NCBI RefSeq assembly: GCF_034519685.1
Contig: NZ_JAXHOF010000003.1
Span: forward strand, 528,967 to 592,966
Direction of reading: 5' to 3'
Length of the DNA: 64,000 bases
Origin: Sphaerotilus sp.
Lineage (GTDB): Bacteria; Pseudomonadota; Gammaproteobacteria; Burkholderiales; Burkholderiaceae_C
The notes beneath the pieces were generated by a model. The model made no database searches. It saw only the letters and a program-made list of their open reading frames with translations, and was not told the origin of the DNA. The position numbers and the translations under genes are program-made. Positions 2,560-52,473 of the stretch are shown here, piece after piece. Positions within the stretch are counted from its first letter, which is position 1. Every line of letters starts with the position of its first letter.

Positions 2560-3744
2560 ATGGAAACGCACATCAACAACCGACCACCTGACAAGCCCAA
2601 GCCTTCGGCATCGCGCGCCCCGCGTGATGGGCCACATCGCACCTATGAACACCCGGCGCTCGACACCGTTCCCCTGAATCCGCGCCGGTGCAGCCATGTG
2701 CTGCAGTTGATCCTGAAGGAGCACAACTGGCGCCACAGCAGCAAGCCCAAAGGCGTGAGCCACAAGACCGTCGCCGAACGGGCGCGCTTCTGCTACTGGT
2801 TGTTCGACTTCCTGCGCGACCACCCCAAGCACTTCAAGCTCGACCCGCGGTCGTTCAGCGGTCGGCACGTCGAAGCCGTCACTCGATACTGGCAGGACGA
2901 AGCGAAAGCCGATCGCATGAGCCCGGCGACGATCCAGACCTACTTCAGCTTCATGAAGACCTTCGCCGGCTGGATCGGCAAGGCGAAGCTGCTGAAGCCG
3001 ATCGGATGCTACTTCGACGATCCCGCGCTCTACCAGCGCGGTCTGTTCAGCGGCGTCGACAAGTCATGGAAGGCCCAGGGTGTGAATGCGGCCGCAGTGA
3101 TCGCCGAAGTTGAGGTGTACGACGTGCATGCTGCGGCCTCGCTGAAACTGATGCAGGCGTTCCAGTTGCGCTTCAAGGAGAGCGTGATGTTCCGGCCGCA
3201 CAGCGACGTGATCACGGCGGCGCAGGCGGGCAAGCCAAATGACGGTGTCGAGTCCTTTCTTGACACGCATCGGGGCACCAAGGGTGGACGGGAACGGCTG
3301 TTCCCCATCGACAACGCGACTCGCCAGGGCGCCATCGCCTACGCGCGGCGGGTCGCTGTGGGCGTCAATGACAGCGTCAGCGACCCACGCCTGACGCTGC
3401 TGCAAGCGATGCGCCGGCTTCGCTACGTGATGGAGCGGTTCGGCATCACGCGCGCGGGCCTGGGTGTGGTGCCACATGGCTTGAGGCATCAGGGCGCGGC
3501 CGAGGACTTCGAGCAGATGACGGGCTCGCCGCCGCCAATTGCCGGAGGCCCTTGCGTCGATCTTGAGCTTGATCGCAGAGCCAGGTTCGAAATCTCTCAA
3601 CGCCTCGGGCACGGTCGCCTGCAGATCGTGGGGACCTACGTCGGCCGCCCCCTCACGCGGCCGCCGGGCGCGACGGCAAGCCCTCCGGTGACGGAGTTGC
3701 TGTCAGAGCAATCTGGCGACAGTGTGGCTGCGGTCAGCAACTGA
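2560..3744 (+). CDS. tyrosine recombinase / integrase-domain protein
   Basis: 394 aa from ATG 2560 inside ORF 2254-3744. C-terminal HGLRHQGAAE (H-x-x-R) and GHGRLQIVGTYVG (catalytic Tyr region). The 2254-2559 extension is Arg/Ala-rich and judged non-coding. Confidence 0.7.
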   Translation: METHINNRPPDKPKPSASRAPRDGPHRTYEHPALDTVPLNPRRCSHVLQLILKEHNWRHSSKPKGVSHKTVAERARFCYWLFDFLRDHPKHFKLDPRSFSGRHVEAVTRYWQDEAKADRMSPATIQTYFSFMKTFAGWIGKAKLLKPIGCYFDDPALYQRGLFSGVDKSWKAQGVNAAAVIAEVEVYDVHAAASLKLMQAFQLRFKESVMFRPHSDVITAAQAGKPNDGVESFLDTHRGTKGGRERLFPIDNATRQGAIAYARRVAVGVNDSVSDPRLTLLQAMRRLRYVMERFGITRAGLGVVPHGLRHQGAAEDFEQMTGSPPPIAGGPCVDLELDRRARFEISQRLGHGRLQIVGTYVGRPLTRPPGATASPPVTELLSEQSGDSVAAVSN

Positions 3745-4175
3745 TCGATCAGGACCACCAGCGACCGCTCGATGGCGGGCAGCGCAACTACAAATGGCGC
3801 GAACGTCGAGCAGATGGACCGGCCGTCTCATCACAGCGGATCAGCAGTCACCCTGGTGGACTTTGGCATGCAGCGCTGTCAGGCGCTGGCGGACATCCAG
3901 CGTGCGTGCTTTCGACATCGTTCCCCCTTCAAGCGGGTCGCGCACGGAATGTGCGGATGGCAGGATTGCAGGAGCATCAGTTGCCGGGTCTGGCGCGACG
4001 ATGGGCTGCCTCGTAGACGCTCGGCCCGGCCATTCGCTGTGCCGGCAGTATTGGCAACAACGCAACATCCCATGGGGAGTCGCTCGCCATGGCGTCATGC
4101 CACGCTTGCGGCACTGCGGGCAAGGGCCGCGCCGCGGCTTCGGCGACCCGTAGCTCTGGCCGGCGGATGCCCATG

Positions 4176-6210
4176 TCACGCCACCGTGGCAGCGTCAGTG
4201 TCGGCCGCAGCCAGGTCGCCCGCGTCATTCCCCGAGCCCGCGTTGTGCACGCTTGCCGGCTTCGGCACCTGCGTCCGCAGGCAGGCCGGCAACCATCCTG
4301 ATTCCGCCATCGCCTGCACGGCGCCGGCCACGACGGCGTCCTTCTTCAGCCCGACCAGGGGGCTGGCGGCATTGGCGTCGACCGCCTCGGTCACGACTTC
4401 GATGACCCGCGCCCTGGACACGTGATCGAGGTACGAGGGGCCGGTGGCCGACCACCAGCGGGTCATGTCCAGCCCAAGGGCTTGGGCGATGGCCCCGTTG
4501 CAGGGTTGGTCGGTTTCGGAGCCAGAGATACCTTTGACGGTAACTGCGACGACGAACGTCAGCAGTTGCAGCGCGGTGGCCTGGTCCTGCGCCAGCACCC
4601 AGCCGAAGATCGCCTCAGGCTGCTTCGGCAGCCGCTCGATCCAGGCCGCGCGTTCGGCCTGCAGTTGGGCCCACGCCGGGCTGGTCTCCATGTCCTCGGC
4701 GGCGGCGCGCAGGTCCGTCGCGCCGTCGGTGGCGGAGATGGACAACACGTCGCTTGCACGGTAGTCGAAGCGCAGCTCGTGCTGGAAGATGTTGCCCGCG
4801 AGGTGAGCGGTGACGGCGGCGAGCGCCACGTCCGGCCGCGCCAGCAACTCGGCTTGCACGGCGGCGACGCGGTGGGCCGTGAGCCGGCGCATCAGCTTCT
4901 CGGAGTGCACGGGCCGGGTTTTCGCGGACGGCAGCGACACCAGCGATCCGTGGTCACCATCCTCGCTGGCCTGTCGTGCAGCCTGTGCGATGTCAGCGCG
5001 ATCCTCCGGGCGCAGGAGGCCGCGCTTCACGGCGGCCGTGCCGTCGTTGTCGACGTAGACCACGCAACCGGCTTGCGCCATCAGTTCGGGTGGCCAGACG
5101 CTCAGCGAGTCCTCGATGGCGCGGATCTGCTGACCCAGCGCGTCCGCCTCTGATTCCAGCCGGCAGTACGCCTCGTCCCGCGCCGGATCATCGTCCTCTT
5201 GGTCGCACAAGGCTTCCCATCTGATCGTTCAGGCCGGTCTGCTGCGCCTGAAGCTTAGCGAGCTGGGTCGCCTCGTCGCCGGTGGGCGCGCGGCGCGTCT
5301 TCCGCAGCTCGCCGAACTTGACGAACTCGTCGTAGACGTATCGCGTGCGCACGGCAACCCACTTCCAGCCCTCGACGGCAATCTGCCTGGCCTTCTTCTG
5401 CAGCTTGTCGGTGGCCAGCCGCTCCAGCAGCGGAATGTCCAGCAGGTAGGCCTTCCGATCGTTGTCGCAGAACAGGTCGCGCCGCAGTACGCCGCCAGCT
5501 TTCTCGTAGGCCTTCAGCGTCACGTAGCGGGCCACCGGATCGCGGTCGGACTCGGCCTCGCCCTGGGTCAGCAGTTGGCGCAGGTGGTCGGCGCGGCGGT
5601 TCCACTGCGGCAGCCCGGCCCAGGCCTGTTCCTGCTTGTCGTGATCGTCGACCGAGGCCAGCACCATCAGGCAGTCCAGGCCGATGCCGCCTTCGCGGTA
5701 CTGCGCCATCAGTTTGGGGCTGACCGCGGCGAGCTTCATACGGCGCTTGACCGTGACCGGGTAGACACCAAATGCAGCGGCCACGTCCTCGACCGCCTTG
5801 CCCTGTTCGATCAGTTTGGCGAAGGCGACGAACTCGTCGGCCGGATGCATGGGGACGTGGAAGCAGTTCTCCGACAGGCTGGCGATCAATCCTTTGTCCG
5901 CCGGCACGATCAGCACCGGCACCGGATAGTTCTCGGGGATGTCGCCGTTGGCGACCAGCAGCGTCAGCGCTCCGAGGCGACGCCCGCCAGCGCAGACTTC
6001 ATAGCGACCGCGAGCGCCCTGTACCACGATCAGGTTCTGCAGAACGCCGCTGTCCTTGATCGAGGCCGCGAGTTCGGCAACGCTCATCTTCGGCGTGTTG
6101 CCGCCGCCGCGGGCCTGGTGGTCCTCGGACAGGACCAGCTTGTTGAAGGGGACGAAGGTGCGGGGTGACGCTTCGATGATGGCGTCGATCTCTTGTTTGG
6201 TGAACTTCAT
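4176..6210 (-). pseudogene. ParB/Srx-family N-terminal-domain protein interrupted by a 1-nt frameshift
   Basis: ORF 5188-6210 (340 aa, MKFTKQEID..., motif VCAGGRRLGAL) and ORF 4176-5210 (344 aa, TTG-initiated) overlap on the same strand. Removing one base of the CCC run at 5216-5218 joins them as ...NDQMEALCDQEDDD... (~677 codons). Confidence 0.7.
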
Positions 6211-6512
6211 CAGGGGCTCCTGAATGCGGTGGGTGGATCACGCGGGCCGCGTGTCCTTGCATTCAGAATCTCATCGGCCGCTCCGTCTTCAAGGCCGCGA
6301 TCCGCACTCCCATCGGAGTGGAATGCGTCGGACAACCACGCAATGCAACGTGCTTCGCCAGCGATCTGCCTTTCCTCTATGCCAGCAGCGCTCCGGGAAG
6401 AATCCACTCGCCTGCTCTGCGCTCGACGGAGCCGCTTGGTGGAGACCGGCCGGCACGACCTGCCAGCCACTGCGACCAGGGGCCAGCAGCGGCGATGGAA
6501 GGCCTCCGGCGC

Positions 6513-7208
6513 ATGACGTTCCTGGTCGCCATCCACGCGGGCAGTTATGTCCTATTGGCAGCAGACAAGATGGAGAGCGTGCGCGTCTTCGATCAGAGCC
6601 TTCCGCTGCACAGCACGGCCTCCAAGATCGTCGATACCCCGTTGGGCGCCATCACCGGCGCCGGATTGGTGTCTTTGCTGGATGCTGTGAAGGCGCGGAT
6701 TCAGGCTGAACCGGTTTCGCACACGGACCAGGTGCTGTCCATCATCCACGACGAGCGAGACCGCGCCCGCGGGCAAGGCAGCGCGAGCGAACAGGATCTC
6801 GCCTACACGAGTTGGCTCCTGACCTACCGCGCGCCGGTCGGCGGCGACATCGCGGTGCGATGCGTTGGTTTCCTGCCTGTGCTGGAGGGTCGGCGGTTCG
6901 TCGTCGTCGAGCAAGGCATGGTCATGCCGGTCTTTCCTCTCGACACGCCGCCGGAAACCGTCCATCGGGTGACAGGCGACCTGCGCTCCGACGTTCGCGT
7001 TGCGGATGAAGGCACCCGTGCGGACAGCCTTCGGCACCACCTCGGCTCGGTGTGCCGGGCACTGTGCGACGTGGCGGCCAGCAGCTCGCAGGTGTCCACG
7101 ACGTTCGACTTCGCCGTCACCACGCGAGAAGGCACGTGGTGCGCTGCCAAGCGCATTGACGCCTTGCATCCGGCGCTCGATGAGTGGCCTGGGATGGATG
7201 ACCCATGA
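6513..7208 (+). CDS. hypothetical protein, proteasome-beta/HslV-like Ntn-hydrolase candidate
   Basis: 231 aa from ATG 6513. N-terminus MTFLVAIHAGSYVLLAADK..., then SKIVDTPLGAITGAG. With Met removed this gives Thr1, Asp17 and Lys37, close to the Thr1/Asp17/Lys33 pattern. The stop overlaps the next start (ATGA 7205-7208). Confidence 0.55.
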   Translation: MTFLVAIHAGSYVLLAADKMESVRVFDQSLPLHSTASKIVDTPLGAITGAGLVSLLDAVKARIQAEPVSHTDQVLSIIHDERDRARGQGSASEQDLAYTSWLLTYRAPVGGDIAVRCVGFLPVLEGRRFVVVEQGMVMPVFPLDTPPETVHRVTGDLRSDVRVADEGTRADSLRHHLGSVCRALCDVAASSSQVSTTFDFAVTTREGTWCAAKRIDALHPALDEWPGMDDP

Positions 7209-9181
7209 CGCGATGGCAGCTTGATCCGGCCACCCCGGCGGTTCGAGACAGCGATGCCGCTCCCGGTGCCGTACCTTTGAAGTGGGCGCACGACGCCACC
7301 ACCGGCGAGCCCCGGTACATCCACGACCAGGAGGTCGTCAGCAAATGCGGCACTTGCGTTTGCCCGGCCTGCCACCTCGAACTGACGCCGGTGCTGGCCG
7401 GCCAGCCGATGCGCGTGCGACCGACGGCCCACTTCAGGCACCCGGCCGGAGCGCAGCGGGACGACTGCGTCCTGGTCGCGGCACGTGTGGCGGCGGCGCG
7501 CCACCTCGCGGAGCGCGGGTTCATCGACCTGCCTCGCCGGAGAGTCTCCGCCAACGCGCGCGGTTTCAGTGGCGAGGACTACGAGGTCTGGGTCGAAGAA
7601 CCGGCCGAGCGTGTGCGCGTCTCGTTGGCCCGCATGCGCGACCACGCCACGGCCGTGCTCACCCTGGACGACGGGCGCGAACTGATCGTCGACCTCACGG
7701 GCACACGCGCACCAACGGACGATGGCCCTGGCGTGGCCATCGTGACCATGGCCTTGTCGGACCTGGCACTGGCCATGCTGGACGCCCCGGCGATCCGGGC
7801 GCGGCTGCGCGTGCTCCCCGATCTGCGCTGGTGTTCACACTGGAAGGACGACGAACTCCAGGCGCAAGGCCGGTCGAGGGCGGAAAAGGCGGCCAGCGAC
7901 GCGATGGATGGTTGGACCGCTGAAGACGAGGCCGAGTTTGTAGGCACGCTGCCGACCGGCACAGCACCCGCGCTGGCTCAGACCTACCGCCGGGAGACCC
8001 TGCTGCATCGCGAGGCCAAGGCCGCGATCGAGCAAGCCGGGGCCATCGACACGCCTGGCCTGGAACTGATCGTCACGCGCCATCCGCCGGATGAACTGGC
8101 CGGGGATTGGGACGACCAGACGATACGCAAGGTCTAGATGACCGGCCGGCGACGCCTCGAACTGGACGAGGTTTGCCTGGAGCGGCGGCTTGGTCGCATC
8201 GTCCCGGACGTGATCGCCACGCTGGGCGGCCGGCAAAGCTACGTGCACGGCGGCACGCGGACCACGGTGGGTGAGGTGTTCGATGAGGACGCCGAGGACG
8301 GCCATTCGCCGGCCTGGCCGGCCACACTGCTGGTTGAAGTGACCGTCACCCACGGCATCGACCACGAGAAGCTTCAACGCATCCGGAAGTTGAACCTTCC
8401 CACCCTGGAAGTCGACCTGAGCGCCATGGGCGGCCGCCTCACACGTGAGCAGTTTAGGGATCTGGTGGTCGACCAGATTGTCGGCAAGCGCTGGGTTCAC
8501 CACCCCGCCCTCGCCGGCAAGTACCGGGTGCTCGAGGCCGAGATCGACGCGCATTCGGTGCGCGCCGATTGGGCCGCACGGATGCGAGAGCTCCACCGCC
8601 CACGCTGGCTTGCGAAGCCGGTCGAACACTGGGCGGCCGAGTACGTCGAGGCTGCGACCGCCCATCACGACGGCAACGTGCGGGTCAGGCGTGCGCTGCG
8701 ATCAACGGAGGCTGCCGAAACGCTGCAGTCCGAACCCCGCGTGGCCGACACCACGTGGCAGCGCCTGGCTGAGGCCGCAGAAGCGCTGCGTGCGCACGGC
8801 CTGCCGGGTGGGCTGGACCCGGACATGATCAGCGATACGGGGCTCGTCCCCCGCATCCTGTCGATCCGGCACAACCGGGGCATCGGCTACGCGGTCGACA
8901 GCGGCTTCCAGGTGCTCAATGCCATCATGCAAAGCGGTGAAGACAACCGGCGCTGGCACACGCTGTACACCATGGCCGTGAAGACCTACGACCTCCCGCA
9001 ACACTTCACGCAGAAGCAGGCCGCGCTCTACGCAAGCTGGCGAATGAGCATTGTTGACGGGGTGCAGGCCAAGGACGAGTCCTACCTCCGCCCCAGCACT
9101 TACGATGACCTCCTCTGCGCGCTGTTTCCGGACATGGCGGCACGCATCGCAAGCGGCTACGGCGTGCGTGCGGTGCGATAG
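7205..9181 (+). pseudogene. CoiA-like zinc-finger / PD-(D/E)xK nuclease-like protein with one in-frame TAG
   Basis: ORFs 7205-8137 and 8138-9181 share one frame and are separated only by TAG 8135-8137. CoiA-like N-terminus (KWAHD...CGTCVCPACH...HFRH). Nuclease-like motifs LLHREAKAAI / IVPDV / LLVEVTVTH..K lie on either side of the stop. Confidence 0.6.
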
Positions 9182-9359
9182 CGAGCGTCACCTTGCTCGA
9201 CGACAACCCGCCATACGGCCGGCCTGGCACGCAAACCACCGTCGATTCCAGTGCACTGAGCGCAGGCGCGTGTTCGACGCGCTCAGGTGCCCTGGCGGCC
9301 TGATCAACCTGGCGCCCAGGGGCTTCACCGTCCAGCGACACGAGATCCGCTACTCGGTC

Positions 9360-9436
9360 GCTGCGACCGCTGCGACCGCTGCGAACCACCGCATCGCCGC
9401 ATCGCCGCATCGCCGCATCGCCGGGCTGCGATGCGG
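9360..9436. repeat. intergenic tandem repeats: GCTGCGACC x3, CCGCATCG x4, plus one inverted octamer copy
   Basis: Nonamers at 9360, 9369 and 9378 (the last with one extra A). Octamers at 9389, 9397, 9405 and 9413. Inverted copy CGATGCGG at 9429-9436. Confidence 0.85.
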
Positions 9437-42924: not shown

Positions 42925-44209
42925 ATCGCTCGGCGATTCGGTTCGTTGTTGACACGGCGAAATCGACATGCGGCTGATCAACACCGTCGCGCTGCAGCAC
43001 ACCCTCGGCAATCGCCTCCGGCGATTGGCTGCGCATGCTGGCCAGACAGGCGATCAGGGGTTCTGCCCGCACGTCCGCGACCTCCGCCCATCGGCTCACC
43101 TTGTCAGCAAGCTCACGCAGTTGGGAGATGCCCGCCGCCCGTGTGCGCACCACCGGCACGATGCGCCCCTCCAGCTTCACCTCTGCGGCTTCCGCCAACG
43201 CCGCCTGCAGCGCGGCGCGGTCCACAGCCGATTGATCTTCCTCGGCCACCGTCCACCGCACCCGCACGCTGGCACCGGCCAGTCCCTGCGCGCGCACCGC
43301 ATCGCGCAACGCATTCACGTCAGGCCGGCCCTCGAACACGATGTCCACGGTGCGCCGCGCCGGCGTCTGCACCAGGTGGCAGCGCGCCGAGTTGGCTTCC
43401 ACCTCCCACAGCAGAAACCCCTTCGCACCCTCCTCGCCGAAGTGGAACCGCCCGATCGAGCCGGGGTAGGCGATGCACTGGCGGCCCACAGCGCTTTCGC
43501 GCGTCCACGCCTGGTGCTTGTGGATGTGGCCGAGCATGAAAGCCTGGGCCTCGGCATCGAATAGCGCACCACTGGTGAACTCGTGGTCGAAGCCAGCCAT
43601 AGGCACGCCGTGCTCGCTGAGGCTTCCGAACACCGTGCCGTGGGATACGCCAATGGTTGGCGCGCCGCCTGCACGCGCTGATCGATGCATGGGCGCAAAG
43701 CCCCGCAGCAAGGCGGTCAGTTGCTCGCCGACCTCTGCCGCCGCCGCTACGCCGCCCACGACCGCCGCAACCGTCGCCTTGTTGACCGTGGGTATGCAGG
43801 AGAACAAGGCTGCCGTTCGATCCGGCAAGGCGTCGAAACACCAGCCTGCCGACGGCAGCCACTGCCCTTGCGTGCTCAACGCCACCTGCTCGATGCGCTC
43901 GGCGACGTAGATCGCATGCCGGGCACCCAGCAGCCGGAAAGCACCCAATGTCCCCGGCGGCTCGTGCGAGAAGGTGCCCTGCAGCATCAGCACCGGGCAG
44001 TGGTCGGCCAGCCTGCGCACCTGCGCCAGCAGCCGCAGCGCCGCCGGCGCGTGCAGGTCCAGCGCGTGATCGGTGCTGTCGCCGGAGATCACGGCCACTT
44101 CGACGCCCGCGCCGATGGCGTGGTCGATGGCTGCGCCGAAGCACCTGTCCGCCTCGGCCAGCGTCTTGTGCCCATAGTGCAGATCGGAGAAGTGCGCCAC
44201 GCGGATCAT
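42905..44209 (-). CDS. Mre11/SbcD-like metallophosphoesterase nuclease
   Basis: 434 aa. Motifs HFSDLH, GDSTDH, GTFSHE, VSHG, GHIH in calcineurin-like order. The 3' end overlaps merR by 20 nt. Confidence 0.8.
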
Positions 44210-45489
44210 GCCGCGCTCCCGTCGGCCAATGCCAGCTCGCTCTCGATCTTGTCGCGGTAGCCCTCGGGATCGTGGCGGTAACGCTCGGCCATCTCGTTCC
44301 AGGCCTGGCGGCGGCCGTGCCGGTTGAGCTTCCAGCCCGCGCCCCAGCGCCGGGCGGCATACGCCTGGTAGCGCACGGGATCGATGCCGCGGGCCTCGGC
44401 CTGGGCGAGCAGTTGCTGGAGCGATGGCGCGCCATCGTCGGGCGCGGGCTCAGGCCCCGGCAGCCCGCCAGTTGCAGGCGCCGAAGCGGCGACCGACCCG
44501 GGCGCTTCACCGCCCAGCAGCTGCGTCGCCAATTGGGCCTGCCGGAGCGCAGCGTCTTCGTCCTCGCGCTCCCGGAGCAAGGCCGTCACGTCCACCGGCG
44601 CTTCGAGTTCGATGATCCATTGCGGCATGCGCACCGGCTTGCCCTGTTCGTCGATGTGCGCCACCTCCATCAGCTTCTTGGTCAGGAAGAACGTCGCATG
44701 CTGCCGATCCAGGAAGCCCGAGATGCGCCCACCGCGAAGGAAGCTCACGGTCTCGAACTTCTGGATCGCGCCGTTCATTGCGTAGAAGCTGTTGGTGTGC
44801 AGTTCGAAGGCGCTGATCGAGCGGATGCCCGGGATGAAGAACAGGAAGCGCCCGCTGAGATTGCACTGTCGGTGCTGGTATTCGGGGCAGCGCTCGGGCT
44901 CGCACAGGCCGCCGTTGGTCTCGCGTGCCATGGTCTTGCGTCCGCCGAAGATGCGGATCGTGCGCCGGCCGGTATCGTCCATGGGAACCGGCGCGTGGGT
45001 CATGCAGTGGCGCACACGGCCATCGGGCGAGTATTCGGACCAGTAGCGCTTCTCGTGCGTGCTCCATGCGGCGAGTTCGTGCGGCATCACGGTCTGCCAG
45101 CGGTCGGACGGGAACACCACCGGAAAGCGGTACAGCCGGCGCCCCTCGCCACGATCCTCGGCGTAGGCGTCGAGAATCTGCCGGGCGATGGCCGGGTTCG
45201 GAAAGTCCTGCGGCCGCACGGTGAACCAGGCCACGTTGCGCGGTGCGAGCGGGTTCTTCAGTTGCGGCAGCGCCTCGGTGATGGCGTGCTCGATCTGATC
45301 GAAGGACTGACCGGCGGCCACGCCCTGCTCGTAGAGCGATTGGGCTCGCGGCTGCGCGGCGGCCTTGGCGGTGAGCACCTTGATACCGGCGCGGATCTTG
45401 CCGCCGATGGGGATGCGTGCGTGCGCCTGGCCGAGCACCGTGGGCGGGCCGGCGCTGGCGCTGTCGTTGATGATGGTGGGAACAGGCAT
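44206..45489 (-). CDS. hypothetical protein with Cys cluster, coupled to the SbcD-like gene
   Basis: 427 aa from ATG 45489 (GGAG 8 nt upstream). Motif GGLCEPERCPEYQHRQC. The stop overlaps the SbcD-like start (ATGA). Confidence 0.6.
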   Translation of the reverse strand: MPVPTIINDSASAGPPTVLGQAHARIPIGGKIRAGIKVLTAKAAAQPRAQSLYEQGVAAGQSFDQIEHAITEALPQLKNPLAPRNVAWFTVRPQDFPNPAIARQILDAYAEDRGEGRRLYRFPVVFPSDRWQTVMPHELAAWSTHEKRYWSEYSPDGRVRHCMTHAPVPMDDTGRRTIRIFGGRKTMARETNGGLCEPERCPEYQHRQCNLSGRFLFFIPGIRSISAFELHTNSFYAMNGAIQKFETVSFLRGGRISGFLDRQHATFFLTKKLMEVAHIDEQGKPVRMPQWIIELEAPVDVTALLREREDEDAALRQAQLATQLLGGEAPGSVAASAPATGGLPGPEPAPDDGAPSLQQLLAQAEARGIDPVRYQAYAARRWGAGWKLNRHGRRQAWNEMAERYRHDPEGYRDKIESELALADGSAA

Positions 45490-45757
45490 GGAGTCGCTCC
45501 GTTGGAGAGGTCCATCCATGCTCCACCAGGCTTTTCCCCGTGCAACCCCGAGGCCCCGACACCAGACGCCGGCCAACGCGCACGCACGGCGCGATTCCTG
45601 ACCGCTCAAATCCCGCGGGCCTGGCGTGCACCACCTGGATGGCGCGGCGCCACCGGATCAGGTACCGGCCTCGTTGCAGGCGGCAGCCTGACGCTCACTG
45701 ACGCCGTGCCCACGTGGGAAGCTGCGCCACCTCGGTGGCCCCCGGTCGCTTCGAGCC

Positions 45758-46906
45758 TCAGGGCACGTCCGCCAGCAACCCCCGCTGCTCCATCAGCTCG
45801 GCGAGCACGGCCTCCTCGATCGCGTACACACCGCGTGCGGCCCGCCACACCAGCGCCTTCTCCTGCAGCGCAAGGAGCGCCTGCTGCACTGCCGGAACAT
45901 CCGCCCTCGCCTCGCCCGCGGGGTTGGCCGCCTGCAGCACGGCTTGATAGGCCTGCAAGGTGGCACCCTCAAACGGCGCGTAGTCGGCACCGCGGCGTGC
46001 CAGCACCTTCAGCACCGCCGCCTGCAGCGGTGTCAGGCTGTGCACGACACGAAGCAGTTCATCGTTGCTGGCATCGATTTGTTCCTGCACCGCCGCCGCG
46101 AAACGCCCCGGCACATCCTGAGGTGCCAGGCCGAACTCGAAGCGCAATGCGTCGGCCGCGGCACCCAGCAGTTCGGGCCGGAAGGCCGCGTGCGTGAACA
46201 GTTCCTGCACCACCATCGGATCCAGCGGCGCAGCCAGGCCCACGCGCTCGCAGAACCAGGCCACGTAGTCCGGCCCCAGCGGCGGGAAGTTGACCAGCGG
46301 TGCACCGTAGAAAGCCTGGTCGCGGCTGTTGCGCAGCATCGCGAGCTTGTCGCGGTTGGAGCCGGTGGCGACCACGCGCAGGCCCCTGTGGCGGCTGCTG
46401 TTGAGCTCGTCGCGCGCGGCCTTGAGGGCGAACAAGGCGTCGTTGCCACGCTCGCTGGTGATGGCGTGCTGCGCTTCGTCGACGATCAACACGATGACCT
46501 GATTCGTCTCGTCCGACAGTGCGGCAAGTGCCGCCGACAGCGACACCCCCTCGCCCAGCCCGACGCGGTCGAGCGAGAACGCCACGCCACCGACGGTCAC
46601 CTTTTCCATGCCGGCGGAGCGGGCCAGGCGCTTGACCACGCCGTCGTGTCGCGACAACTCGGCCCGAACCGCATGCACGATCACATCGCCGGGGTCGGCG
46701 CGCCGGTCTTCCCACAGGTCGACGTAGACCACCAGCGCGCCTTGCTTCTCAAGTTGCGGCCGCAGGTCTTCGCGCAGGAAGGTGGATTTGCCGGTGCGCC
46801 TGGGTGCCGCCAGGAACAGGCCCGATCCCGACGCCGAGGTCGGCGCCACGAAAAGCACCTTGTTGGCCAGGTCGGCGGCGAGCGCTTCGCGATGGAACAC
46901 GTCCAT
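45758..46906 (-). CDS. AAA-type ATPase (archaeal-ATPase/DUF234-like architecture)
   Basis: 382 aa. Walker A APRRTGKST, Walker B VLIVDEAQH. The C-terminal third looks like a winged helix. Confidence 0.7.
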   Translation of the reverse strand: MDVFHREALAADLANKVLFVAPTSASGSGLFLAAPRRTGKSTFLREDLRPQLEKQGALVVYVDLWEDRRADPGDVIVHAVRAELSRHDGVVKRLARSAGMEKVTVGGVAFSLDRVGLGEGVSLSAALAALSDETNQVIVLIVDEAQHAITSERGNDALFALKAARDELNSSRHRGLRVVATGSNRDKLAMLRNSRDQAFYGAPLVNFPPLGPDYVAWFCERVGLAAPLDPMVVQELFTHAAFRPELLGAAADALRFEFGLAPQDVPGRFAAAVQEQIDASNDELLRVVHSLTPLQAAVLKVLARRGADYAPFEGATLQAYQAVLQAANPAGEARADVPAVQQALLALQEKALVWRAARGVYAIEEAVLAELMEQRGLLADVP

Positions 46907-46968
46907 GACCGCTCCTCGGCAAGTGTTGAATTACAGTCAATTATAGACAACTATAGAAAGCGAGACTC

Positions 46969-50784: not shown

Positions 50785-52431
50785 CTACGTGGCTGCGCAG
50801 ACGGCTCCAGGACAGGGGTCGGCGATGGCTTTGGCCGGCTGCCAGTTGTGCGGCAACAGCTGCGCCAGGTCGCGGTTCTTCAGCGTTGGCAGCCGCTCGA
50901 AGACGTCCTTCAGATAAGCCCAAGGGTCATGCCCGTTGAGCTTGGCCGATTCAATCAGGCTCATCAGCACCGCGGCGCGCTCGCCGGCCATCTGCGAGCC
51001 CACGAACAGCCAGTTCTTGCGCCCCACGGCCAGCGGGCGAATGGCGTTCTCGGCCGCGTTGTTGTCGATGGGCACCGCCCCGTCGCCCAGGAAGGTCGTC
51101 AGTGCTGGCCAATTGCTCAGCGCATAGTCGATGGCCCTGGCCGTGGCGTCGGCCTTGACCAGCAGTTGGCGCTGACCTGTCAGCCAGGCATGCAGCGCAT
51201 CGGCCACCGGTTTTGATCGTTGCTGGCGCGCCAGCAGCCTGTCGTCGTTGCTGGCGCCCTGGACCTCGCGCTCGATCTCATAGAGCTTGGCGATCAGCGC
51301 GACGGCTTGGCCCGCGATCTGGCTGCCGTTGAGCTCGAACGCCTCGAACAGCTTCCTGCGGGCGTGCGCCATGCAGAACGCGGGGGTGATGCCCCGCCTG
51401 TGCAGCGCGTGGTAGCCCGAGAAGTCGTCGCTGACCAGCGTGCCGTTGAACCCGGCCAGCACGCGCTGCGGGTGCTCTCCCGCACGGCTGGCGGTGAAGT
51501 CGTAGAGCATCGCACGGCCTCGGCCCTGGGCCCCCACGAAGTTCGTCGTGTGGTACACCCAGACATAGGCCTTCTTGGTCTTGCCGCGCCCCGGCGCCAG
51601 CAGCGCCACCGGTGTCTCGTCAGCGTGCAGCACGGCGTGGCCGAGGATGAAGTCGGCCAGCGCCGCGGCCAGCGGCTGCAGCCGCACCCCGCAGATGCCC
51701 AGCCACTGGGCCATGCTCGAGCGCGGGATGTGCACACCACTGCGGGCGTAGATCTCGGTCTGGCGGTACAGCGGCAGATGGTCGTCGACCTTGGCGATGG
51801 CGACTTGGGCCAGCAGACCTGCAGCCGGGATACCCTTGTCGATCATCTGCGCGGGCATGGGTGCGGCCTGGATCGTCTGGCAGCACGCGCAGGCGTACTT
51901 GCCGCGGATGTGGCGCAGCACGAAGAACTGGGCGGGCACGCAGTCCAGTTGCTCGCTGACCTCTTCGCCGATGCGCTGCAGGGCCTGGCCGCAGGCGCAG
52001 TGCGTAGCGCCGATGTCGTGGTGGCGCTCGACGCGCGGCAGGCCAGCGGGCAGCGCCTGGCGAACGGCCTGGCGCTTGGTACGGGGCGCTGCCGCAGGCG
52101 TGCTGCCTTCTGTCTTGGCCGCATCGTCCTCCTGCGCGGTGTCGGCCAGGATGGCGTCGAACAGCACGGCCTGAGTGCTCGCATCCAGGCTCTCGGCCGA
52201 GGTGCCGAAGCGCCAGCGCTTCAGGCGTGCGACCTCGAAGTTCAGCGCCTCGATCCTGGTCTGGCTGAACTTCAGCTCGGCCTGCATGCGTTCGATCTGA
52301 TCGCGCAGCGCCTGCAGCGAATCGCTTGCCGGCACACCATCCGCGGCGGTGTCCAGGGCGGGCGCTGGCGGAGCATCGAGCATGACCAAAGTATGTCCCT
52401 CGCGCGTGCGCGCGAGAAGCCAGACATTCAC
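50785..52431 (-). CDS. tnpC: IS66-family transposase (TnpC)
   Basis: 548-aa ORF. Leucine-zipper-like N-terminus, CxxC zinc-finger region (HCACGQAL...YACACC), DDE core. The start may be Met17 (52383). Confidence 0.9.
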
Positions 52432-52473
52432 CCATGGACAAACGAGCCAAGCGACCTCCGCGATGCAGGCGGC

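Follow-up and report, generated by a model that had tools for sequence, protein, structure and literature searches.

A proteasome-like gene overlapping a gene with CoiA-type motifs in a mobile element of Sphaerotilus

The DNA stretch analysed here, referred to as the window, comprises 64,000 nucleotides of Sphaerotilus sp. (contig NZ_JAXHOF010000003.1, positions 528,967 to 592,966 of the forward strand). This work concerns two overlapping genes within it, both on the + strand: gene A (6513..7208), which encodes a 231-residue protein predicted to be a proteasome-beta-like N-terminal nucleophile (Ntn) hydrolase, and gene B (7205..9181), which encodes a longer protein with a zinc finger and a putative nuclease core and is interrupted by an in-frame stop codon. 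The locus looks like the variable region by the ParB-like gene of an integrated mobile element, either a Tn4371-type integrative and conjugative element (ICE) or a genomic island with metal-resistance cargo. An initial annotation, made from the sequence alone, had proposed the two genes as an undescribed two-gene system.

Structure and coding status of the two genes

Protein A is identical to WP_322587547.1 of Sphaerotilus sp. and begins MTFLVAIHAGSYVLLAADK. Threonine is residue 2 and aspartate is residue 18, i.e. position 17 after removal of the initiator methionine. A Lys-Ile pair is found at residues 38-39, followed by DTPLGAITGAG, and a glycine-rich loop (G45, G49 and G51) lies downstream of Lys38. 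The putative catalytic codons are Thr2 at 6516-6518, Asp18 at 6564-6566 and Lys38 at 6624-6626, all on the + strand. The whole arrangement of Thr1, Asp17, Lys-Ile and DTPLGAITGAG, as the initial annotation gave it for this open reading frame, is seen in the translation.

The stop codon of A and the start codon of B share the sequence ATGA (7205..7208, +), an overlap which suggests that translation of the two genes is coupled. From here a 657-codon frame, again as annotated, extends to 9181 and contains a single TAG, at 8135-8137. The N-terminal part of B (7205..8137, +) has 310 codons before this TAG and contains the C2H2 motif, a beta-rich middle domain and the helix E264-x3-H268-x3-K272. The zinc-finger motif, C51/C53/C56 ... 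H76/H79 and C88, is encoded by nucleotides 7355-7468 (+), and the putative nuclease core starts with the E264-x3-H268-x3-K272 helix from nucleotide 7994 (+). The C-terminal part (8138..9181, +) has 347 codons and carries the remainder of the putative core, with E326, P334-D335, E378-V-T and E402 (to nucleotide 8410), together with an all-alpha C-terminal domain. The motif strings which had been pointed out as CoiA-type or nuclease-like, KWAHD, CGTCVCPACH, HFRH, LLHREAKAAI, IVPDV and LLVEVTVTH, are all present in the frame. A short tandem repeat, GCTGCGACC GCTGCGACC GCTGCGAAC, is found in the intergenic sequence just 3' of B, at 9355-9390 of the window.

The in-frame TAG (8135..8137, +) stands at the codon of a conserved tryptophan, Trp311 (TGG; context KVW[L/M]TG), which is invariant in 94 intact B homologues, and is consistent with a single nonsense change from TGG to TAG. 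The ATG following it corresponds to a native Met/Leu position and is no new start. The TAG splits B within the putative nuclease core, where according to the structural model described below it falls between strands of the putative catalytic site, and the window copy of B is probably inactivated.

Both frames were evaluated for coding character. The GC content at third codon positions (GC3) is 0.79-0.83 in A and B, which is of coding type (the window has 69% GC), and the ratio of nonsynonymous to synonymous substitution rates (dN/dS), calculated pairwise against four homologous loci, is 0.17-0.32 for both frames, with 0.2-0.3 for gene A alone and 0.19-0.32 for the C-terminal part of B. Because of the coding-type GC3, these dN/dS values and motif residues that are invariant or nearly so, both frames are real beyond chance. 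The alternative that A is a mis-called open reading frame was rejected, since GC3, dN/dS and conservation all mark a real gene.

Properties of the encoded proteins

An AlphaFold model of protein A was built on 12 close homologues only and reached a predicted local distance difference test score (pLDDT) of 81.6 and a predicted template modelling score (pTM) of 0.80. When this model was searched against PDB with Foldseek, 670 matches were obtained at E<=1e-3. The top matches were Anbu (5nyw and 5nyg), followed by 20S beta subunits from M. tuberculosis, Thermoplasma, other archaea and eukaryotes, and the matches to Anbu and 20S beta subunits had E values of 4e-8 to 1e-6 and template modelling (TM) scores of 0.55-0.65. 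The model has the alpha-beta-beta-alpha sandwich of 20S beta subunits, as a fold predicted from a 12-sequence alignment. The initial annotation had named the absence of an Ntn fold and of a nuclease fold as grounds for discarding its proposal; for A an Ntn fold is in this way predicted.

A profile search of 1.84 billion cluster representatives returned 281 relatives of A, almost all of them 200-250 residues long, and of the 150 matches listed nearly all have profile alignments that begin with residue 1. Conservation was calculated from an alignment of 100 relatives having 20-30% identity to A. All 100 open with a start residue (Met, Val or Leu) directly followed by Thr or Ser, the residue at position 2 being Thr in 87 and Ser in 13. 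Asp18 is conserved in 99%, Lys38 in 100%, and the glycines G45, G49 and G51 in 98%, 97% and 100%, respectively. Going by this alignment, equivalents of Asp17, Lys33 and Gly47 of the proteasome are present in the A family as D18, K38 and the glycine loop, and the putatively nucleophilic Thr or Ser would be the first residue of the mature protein once the initiator methionine is removed.

Comparisons at the level of profiles gave much less. An hhalign comparison of A with E. coli HslV placed residues 1-25 on residues 1-25 in the same register, but this alignment is weak (E 0.014, probability 3%). None of the 100 relatives matched the Pfam Proteasome family (PF00227) or any other Pfam model at E<=0.01, the A-family profile had no match among PDB sequences at E<=10, and protein A itself had no match in Pfam, NCBIfam, PADLOC or PHROGs. 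The proposed resemblance of A to proteasome beta subunits, HslV and Anbu is therefore borne out by the fold match and by the catalytic residues conserved in the 100 relatives, but not by Pfam, PDB sequences or the profile comparison with HslV.

Because of the Foldseek matches to Anbu and 20S beta subunits and the conserved Thr/Ser2, Asp18 and Lys38, the reading of A as a proteasome-beta/Anbu-like Ntn hydrolase is well supported at the level of the predicted structure, and A is a genuine gene whose product is probably an active, uncharacterised proteasome-like threonine hydrolase. We rejected the possibility that A is HslV or Anbu proper. Characteristic neighbours are HslU for HslV, and ATP-grasp, alpha-E and transglutaminase genes for Anbu. 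No AAA+ unfoldase, HslU, ATP-grasp or transglutaminase genes were found among the called neighbours of A in the window and related loci, and there is no Pfam match. The relatives come from Vibrio, Colwellia, Alteromonas and Photobacterium, with one additional locus (L051/L052, 6001-6687) in what is apparently an archaeal genome, where the A-family member lies between two groups of genes, the first made up of Endo_dU, exosome and RNA polymerase subunit L genes and the second of TFIIS-like, PCNA and primase genes. A thus belongs to a family without a Pfam model that spans both prokaryotic domains and usually occurs as a solitary gene.

For protein B at least 187 homologues of about 655-675 residues were found, none of which carries a Pfam annotation; the distant ones (26-36% identity) are encoded on large betaproteobacterial plasmids. 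Among 94 closer homologues the zinc-finger residues C53, C56, H76 and H79 do not vary, and with six distant plasmid homologues included their conservation is still at least 90%. E264, H268, K272, E326, D335, E378 and E402 are the same in all of these proteins, down to 27% identity. In the multi-domain AlphaFold model of B (pLDDT 82.7, pTM 0.56) a long helix carries E264, H268 and K272, D335 stands where a strand begins, and E378 lies in a strand, after which come a helix and a further strand. This predicted order of helices and strands is compatible with a PD-(D/E)xK core.

Statistical searches with B yielded nothing above threshold. Both halves of the window protein were searched against Pfam, NCBIfam, PADLOC and PHROGs without a result above threshold, Pfam gave nothing relevant on 32 homologues, and CoiA_nuc (PF06054) was not matched by the window halves, the 32 homologues, isolated domains or constructs trimmed of inserts. 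Sub-threshold Pfam matches of the finger were DUF7830 (E 0.008-0.28), DUF7828 (E 0.07-0.11) and CoiA_N (E 0.58), and in PADLOC-DB the N-terminal part hit only DruB (E 0.045), over the zinc-finger region. Profiles of B aligned by hhalign with a CoiA-family protein of plasmid pEP1 at E 0.07-0.26 and a probability below 1%, which is not significant; the top local alignment is the ET..H...K helix. Foldseek with the whole model against PDB and BFVD returned nothing significant, the best nuclease-labelled match having E 0.21, and the only match of the B profile among PDB sequences was VC1899 (weak, E 0.89). On the trimmed core of one homologue BsuBI_PstI_RE was obtained at a sub-threshold E of 0.0075.

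These results bear on whether B is a nuclease at all. It could instead be a zinc-finger DNA-binding, scaffold or regulatory protein belonging to the maintenance region of the ICE or plasmid, with the PD/ExT pattern having a structural role. The lack of a significant nuclease match in hidden Markov model (HMM), profile or fold searches agrees with such a role, as do the canonical lysine of ExK, which in B is Thr or Ala, and the constant place of the gene beside partition-type genes (ParB_N and ALP/ParM-like). On the other hand, seven charged or histidine residues invariant to 27% identity are typical of a metal-dependent active site more than of a scaffold, the motif order matches that of CoiA, which has been shown to be a structure-specific endonuclease despite its atypical catalytic sequence (10.1101/2024.02.06.579203), and the one sub-threshold core match is to the BsuBI/PstI endonucleases. 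We regard a non-nuclease B as somewhat unlikely; B is probably a metal-dependent, DNA-structure-specific nuclease, judging from its conserved residues. The term CoiA-like nuclease is accordingly a reasonable reading of B and not an established one: of what the initial annotation had claimed, the motifs and the CoiA-like architecture hold, B having a C2H2 motif ahead of predicted D and E strands in the order described for CoiA, whereas confirmation by CoiA_nuc, hhalign, Foldseek or a significant match in any search was not obtained.

Distribution and origin of the A-B pair

Adjacent A and B genes that overlap by the same 4 nt occur in the window and in loci L001, L002-L004, L007, L058/L059 and L067. 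The pair with this overlap recurs in seven sets of loci, and one 13.3-kb contig also holds both genes. In four comparisons the synonymous divergence (dS) of A equals that of B, the values for A against B being 0.26 against 0.25/0.22, 0.83 against 0.91/0.76, 0.83 against 0.89/0.74 and 1.5 against 1.5/1.6. The two genes have thus been inherited together. In L001 the pair lies in a different element, with AAA_24 and D5-primase genes. That locus also has a GAD-like/Tdi1 gene of the type VI secretion system (T6SS) immunity type at 859-1473, two genes upstream of A, and a primase/AAA_24 replication module downstream of B.

Such constancy would suit a true two-component system, in which the threonine protease A would activate, mature or restrain B, e.g. 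through cleavage of B or of a sensor, and the pair would serve the mobile element in defence or anti-defence. The ATGA overlap kept in all A-B loci, the equal dS and the maintenance of the pair as a block in the background of L001 all favour it. Furthermore, some related loci have defence-like neighbours (an OLD/Gabija-like ATPase-TOPRIM gene; a cluster with Mrr_cat and AAA domains), and no known defence family matches, so that the system would be an undescribed one; against the known anti-phage systems of PADLOC-DB, A had no match and the N-terminal part of B none above threshold. The distribution of the genes outside these loci, however, speaks against it. In a neighbour-joining tree all B proteins that are accompanied by A form a single clade, and the association therefore counts as one evolutionary event, a single acquisition. 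Near-full-length B was located in 37 loci of reference genomes, and in 36 of these it stands without A, L007 being the only exception; B is also present on eight plasmids, none with A, and in most elements it is kept intact in the absence of A. Additionally, more than 250 distant relatives of A have no B-like or nuclease neighbour.

One further case is found inside the clade itself. P0017, which is 70% identical to the window B, is nested among the A-bearing proteins and has no A. Of A, its loci L056 and L057 retain approximately the last 15 codons (..HPALD..), together with the ATGA overlap, as detected by blastn with 76% identity over 55 nt (E 3e-7), while B is intact with 657 amino acids. 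This 3' remnant of A (..HDAKHPALDEAPRRGRI*), at 7873-8004 of L056 and 6116-6247 of L057, overlaps the start of B and records one deletion of A in which B was kept. The window provides the opposite case, as A is intact and B is stopped by the TGG to TAG change. Since A was lost with B kept, and B is stopped here with A intact, we see no mutual dependence of the two genes.

No plasmid was matched when the locus was searched by megablast, tblastn of A gave no match among phages and one distant Vibrio match among plasmids, without B, and scans of IMG/VR for A and for B found none. One further A-B locus came from a metagenome scan for A. The distant A relatives are solitary in the neighbour comparison, with no B and no shared neighbour. 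A and B are therefore not neighbours wherever either of them occurs: the adjacency in other genomes which the initial annotation had suggested examining does recur, inside one clade of B, and elsewhere B is mostly without A and distant A without B.

The genes upstream of B vary widely. They include a 269-amino acid family, a 1700-amino acid SNF2/methylase protein, a caspase-like protein, a ThiF/JAB protein with a 112-amino acid protein, Fic, a UvrD-like helicase and a methyltransferase, and in some loci ParB is directly upstream. In the ThiF/JAB loci (L017 4117-6004, L021 2606-4358) an open reading frame of about 500 codons, ThiF/E1-like with a JAB-type motif recognised by eye, is followed by the 112-amino acid Cys-rich one, which has a 4-nt overlap with the start of B. 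Like A, this cassette is cargo coupled to B.

The explanation we favour, and consider rather likely, is that A is cargo which was put once into a hotspot before the conserved ICE/plasmid gene B, the two being co-expressed and not mutually dependent. B is a stand-alone gene, widespread on betaproteobacterial ICEs and large plasmids, with a product of about 658 amino acids that in its CoiA-like layout combines a C2H2 finger, a putative restriction-endonuclease-like core (the E..H..K helix, the PD strand and the ExT strand) and a long helical C-terminal domain. The nuclease would have as its target DNA of the element or its competitors that has been transferred or is recombining. The spot between ParB and B gathers many different cargo genes. 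A, a hydrolase whose Thr1 nucleophile would be exposed by removal of the initiator methionine and aided by Asp17 and by the lysine at the Lys33-equivalent position, would have been inserted a single time directly upstream of B in one sub-clade, become translationally coupled to it and been inherited with it since. The functions of the two co-expressed proteins would be independent.

Several observations weigh against this explanation or parts of it. The 4-nt overlap is kept in every A-B locus, including the different element of L001, as expected of a working unit. Only 12 sequences underlie the model of A, and of the five models produced the remaining four were poor. No statistical support for a nuclease assignment of B came from Pfam, NCBIfam, PHROG, hhalign or Foldseek against PDB and BFVD, and B lacks the canonical lysine of ExK. 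Finally, the TAG in B and a frameshift in the neighbouring ParB gene suggest either decay of the element or assembly errors, and in the latter case they would not reflect decay.

Taking both sides together, we hold a two-component system to be unlikely. The idea of an undescribed two-gene system is in this sense retained for the recurrent adjacency, which is limited to one B clade, and is contradicted by the usual presence of B without A, the deletion of A and the distant A genes without B. A functional partnership of protease and nuclease is likewise doubtful. In its specific form, an operon in which a self-compartmentalising threonine protease would process or gate a CoiA-like structure-specific nuclease while the ICE becomes established or comes into conflict with phages or plasmids, it appears quite improbable. 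We also considered a toxin-antitoxin or addiction module, in which B would be a toxic nuclease neutralised by A, or the roles would be exchanged, as two genes with overlapping frames on a mobile element have the appearance of one. Each gene persists without the other, B being alone in dozens of loci as well as after the deletion of A, and A being without intact B here and without B in all distant relatives, which argues against toxin-antitoxin logic and strict mutual dependence. No known family of toxins or antitoxins was matched by either protein. This candidate was rejected as very improbable.

We know of no function for the proteasome homologues of prokaryotes apart from HslV, Anbu, BPH and connectase. 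In the small A-B clade an orphan homologue has a conserved and apparently translationally coupled partner on a mobile element, and if the protease-nuclease partnership were true it would be the first functional partner or clue for any orphan prokaryotic proteasome homologue. The pairing, however, arose once, each gene can persist without its partner, and the B of the window is broken. B in itself, a gene that lacks annotation, is widespread on the ICEs (Tn4371 among them) and plasmids of Betaproteobacteria, where it is located at the edge of a cargo hotspot by ParB. Should it be a structure-specific nuclease of the CoiA-like kind, it may have a role in establishing or recombining transferred DNA.

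The mobile element and comparison with known systems

The conserved neighbour of B is a divergent gene with a ParB_N domain (4176..6210, -), identified by a Pfam match. It is present as two overlapping open reading frames with a frameshift near 5209-5216, where the two frames of the window that match the intact 676-residue ParB homologue of L058 meet. The arrangement of a divergent ParB-like gene followed by B, with or without A, is also found in L002, L005, L056 and L058. The intergenic region between the ParB-like gene and A (6211..6512) is presumed to be a divergent promoter region; no sigma-70 consensus was found in it. The window shares 88% identity with the metagenomic element L058 over about 14 kb distributed across 17 kb, and L058 has both ParB and B intact.

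Near A and B the window contains an ALP/ParM-like gene, the ParB_N gene, DUF6878, RadC and an SMC-like ATPase. At a greater distance, metal and redox resistance cargo occupies 20772-41792 (-), with DsbD, a multicopper oxidase, a BNR-repeat protein, a CusA-like protein, CusB/CusF-like efflux proteins and a MerA-like reductase with an HMA domain. A Gp3-like recombination-directionality-factor protein and an adjacent AAA ATPase are encoded at 44209-46930 (-), and an IS66-family transposase at 50788-52473 (-); the directionality-factor-like protein and the transposase are further signs of a mosaic mobile region. Among the related loci, L002 has a cassette of ThiF, Prok-JAB, Prok-E2, alpha-hel2 and Prok_Ub at 3234-7868, beside the ParB-like gene and with a weak PRTRC_E match, which looks like a PRTRC-type ubiquitin-like module. 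The defence-like genes found downstream of B in L002 (13737-15674), L056 (16172-17974) and L005 (10277-17213) are the OLD/Gabija-like ATPase-TOPRIM gene and the cluster with AAA_21, AAA_23, MC2, CTD6 and Mrr_cat domains, and the region flanking B has the look of a defence or cargo island.

The Tn4371 family is defined by a related integrase together with repA/parA/parB and trb genes. Tn4371 itself contains a full-length homologue of B, Q84ES0 (P0088, 663 amino acids, Cupriavidus oxalaticus), with 55% identity, which is an unannotated open reading frame with no function assigned. A variable region with non-conserved helicase, nuclease, RadC and ThiF-like open reading frames has been described for Tn4371-like ICEs by Ryan et al. 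(PMC2789088). Similar non-conserved open reading frames occur in the window and in the related loci, a likeness by gene content.

CoiA has been described as a protein with a C2H2 zinc finger, an atypical PD-(D/E)xK site (D95, E105) and a long C-terminus without signature, and it is placed in Bacillota as a competence-specific gene (10.1101/2024.02.06.579203). The same order, a C2H2 motif (CxxC ... HFxH), a putative atypical core and a long C-terminus, is seen in B at the level of motifs when compared with the Pfam description (CoiA_N, PF25164, and CoiA_nuc, PF06054). The atypical core of CoiA has Asp in beta2 and Glu in beta3, an order which B matches, and ETAEHLFVK at the start of CoiA_nuc in the CoiA-family protein of pEP1 resembles RETLLHREAK of B. 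B is, however, about twice as long as CoiA, with an insert of about 170 residues between finger and core and more inserts inside the core, and it is found beside ParB on betaproteobacterial ICEs and plasmids, whereas CoiA is a competence gene of Bacillota.

Among the proteasome homologues, 22 remote uncharacterised proteasome-like subfamilies have been reported by Fuchs, Alva and Lupas (2021), with no gene context hinting at function and no propeptide in any proteasome homologue except proteasome beta and HslV (PMC8665760). The predicted Ntn alpha-beta-beta-alpha fold is common to A, Anbu, HslV, BPH and these 22 subfamilies, and the A family likewise has Thr or Ser directly after Met and no propeptide, as the 22 have, together with equivalents of Asp17, Lys33 and the glycine-rich oxyanion loop. 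It differs in that none of its 100 aligned members matches PF00227 and no PDB sequence is matched by the A profile. One of the 22, GPH, is spread over Proteobacteria and Euryarchaeota (PMC8665760), which resembles the spread of the A family; this likeness is by described distribution only and serves as a lead. The comparison with all 22 was made by description only, and the A family may equal one of them. Relative to these subfamilies, the coupling of A with B on ICEs is a new context, confined to one small clade.

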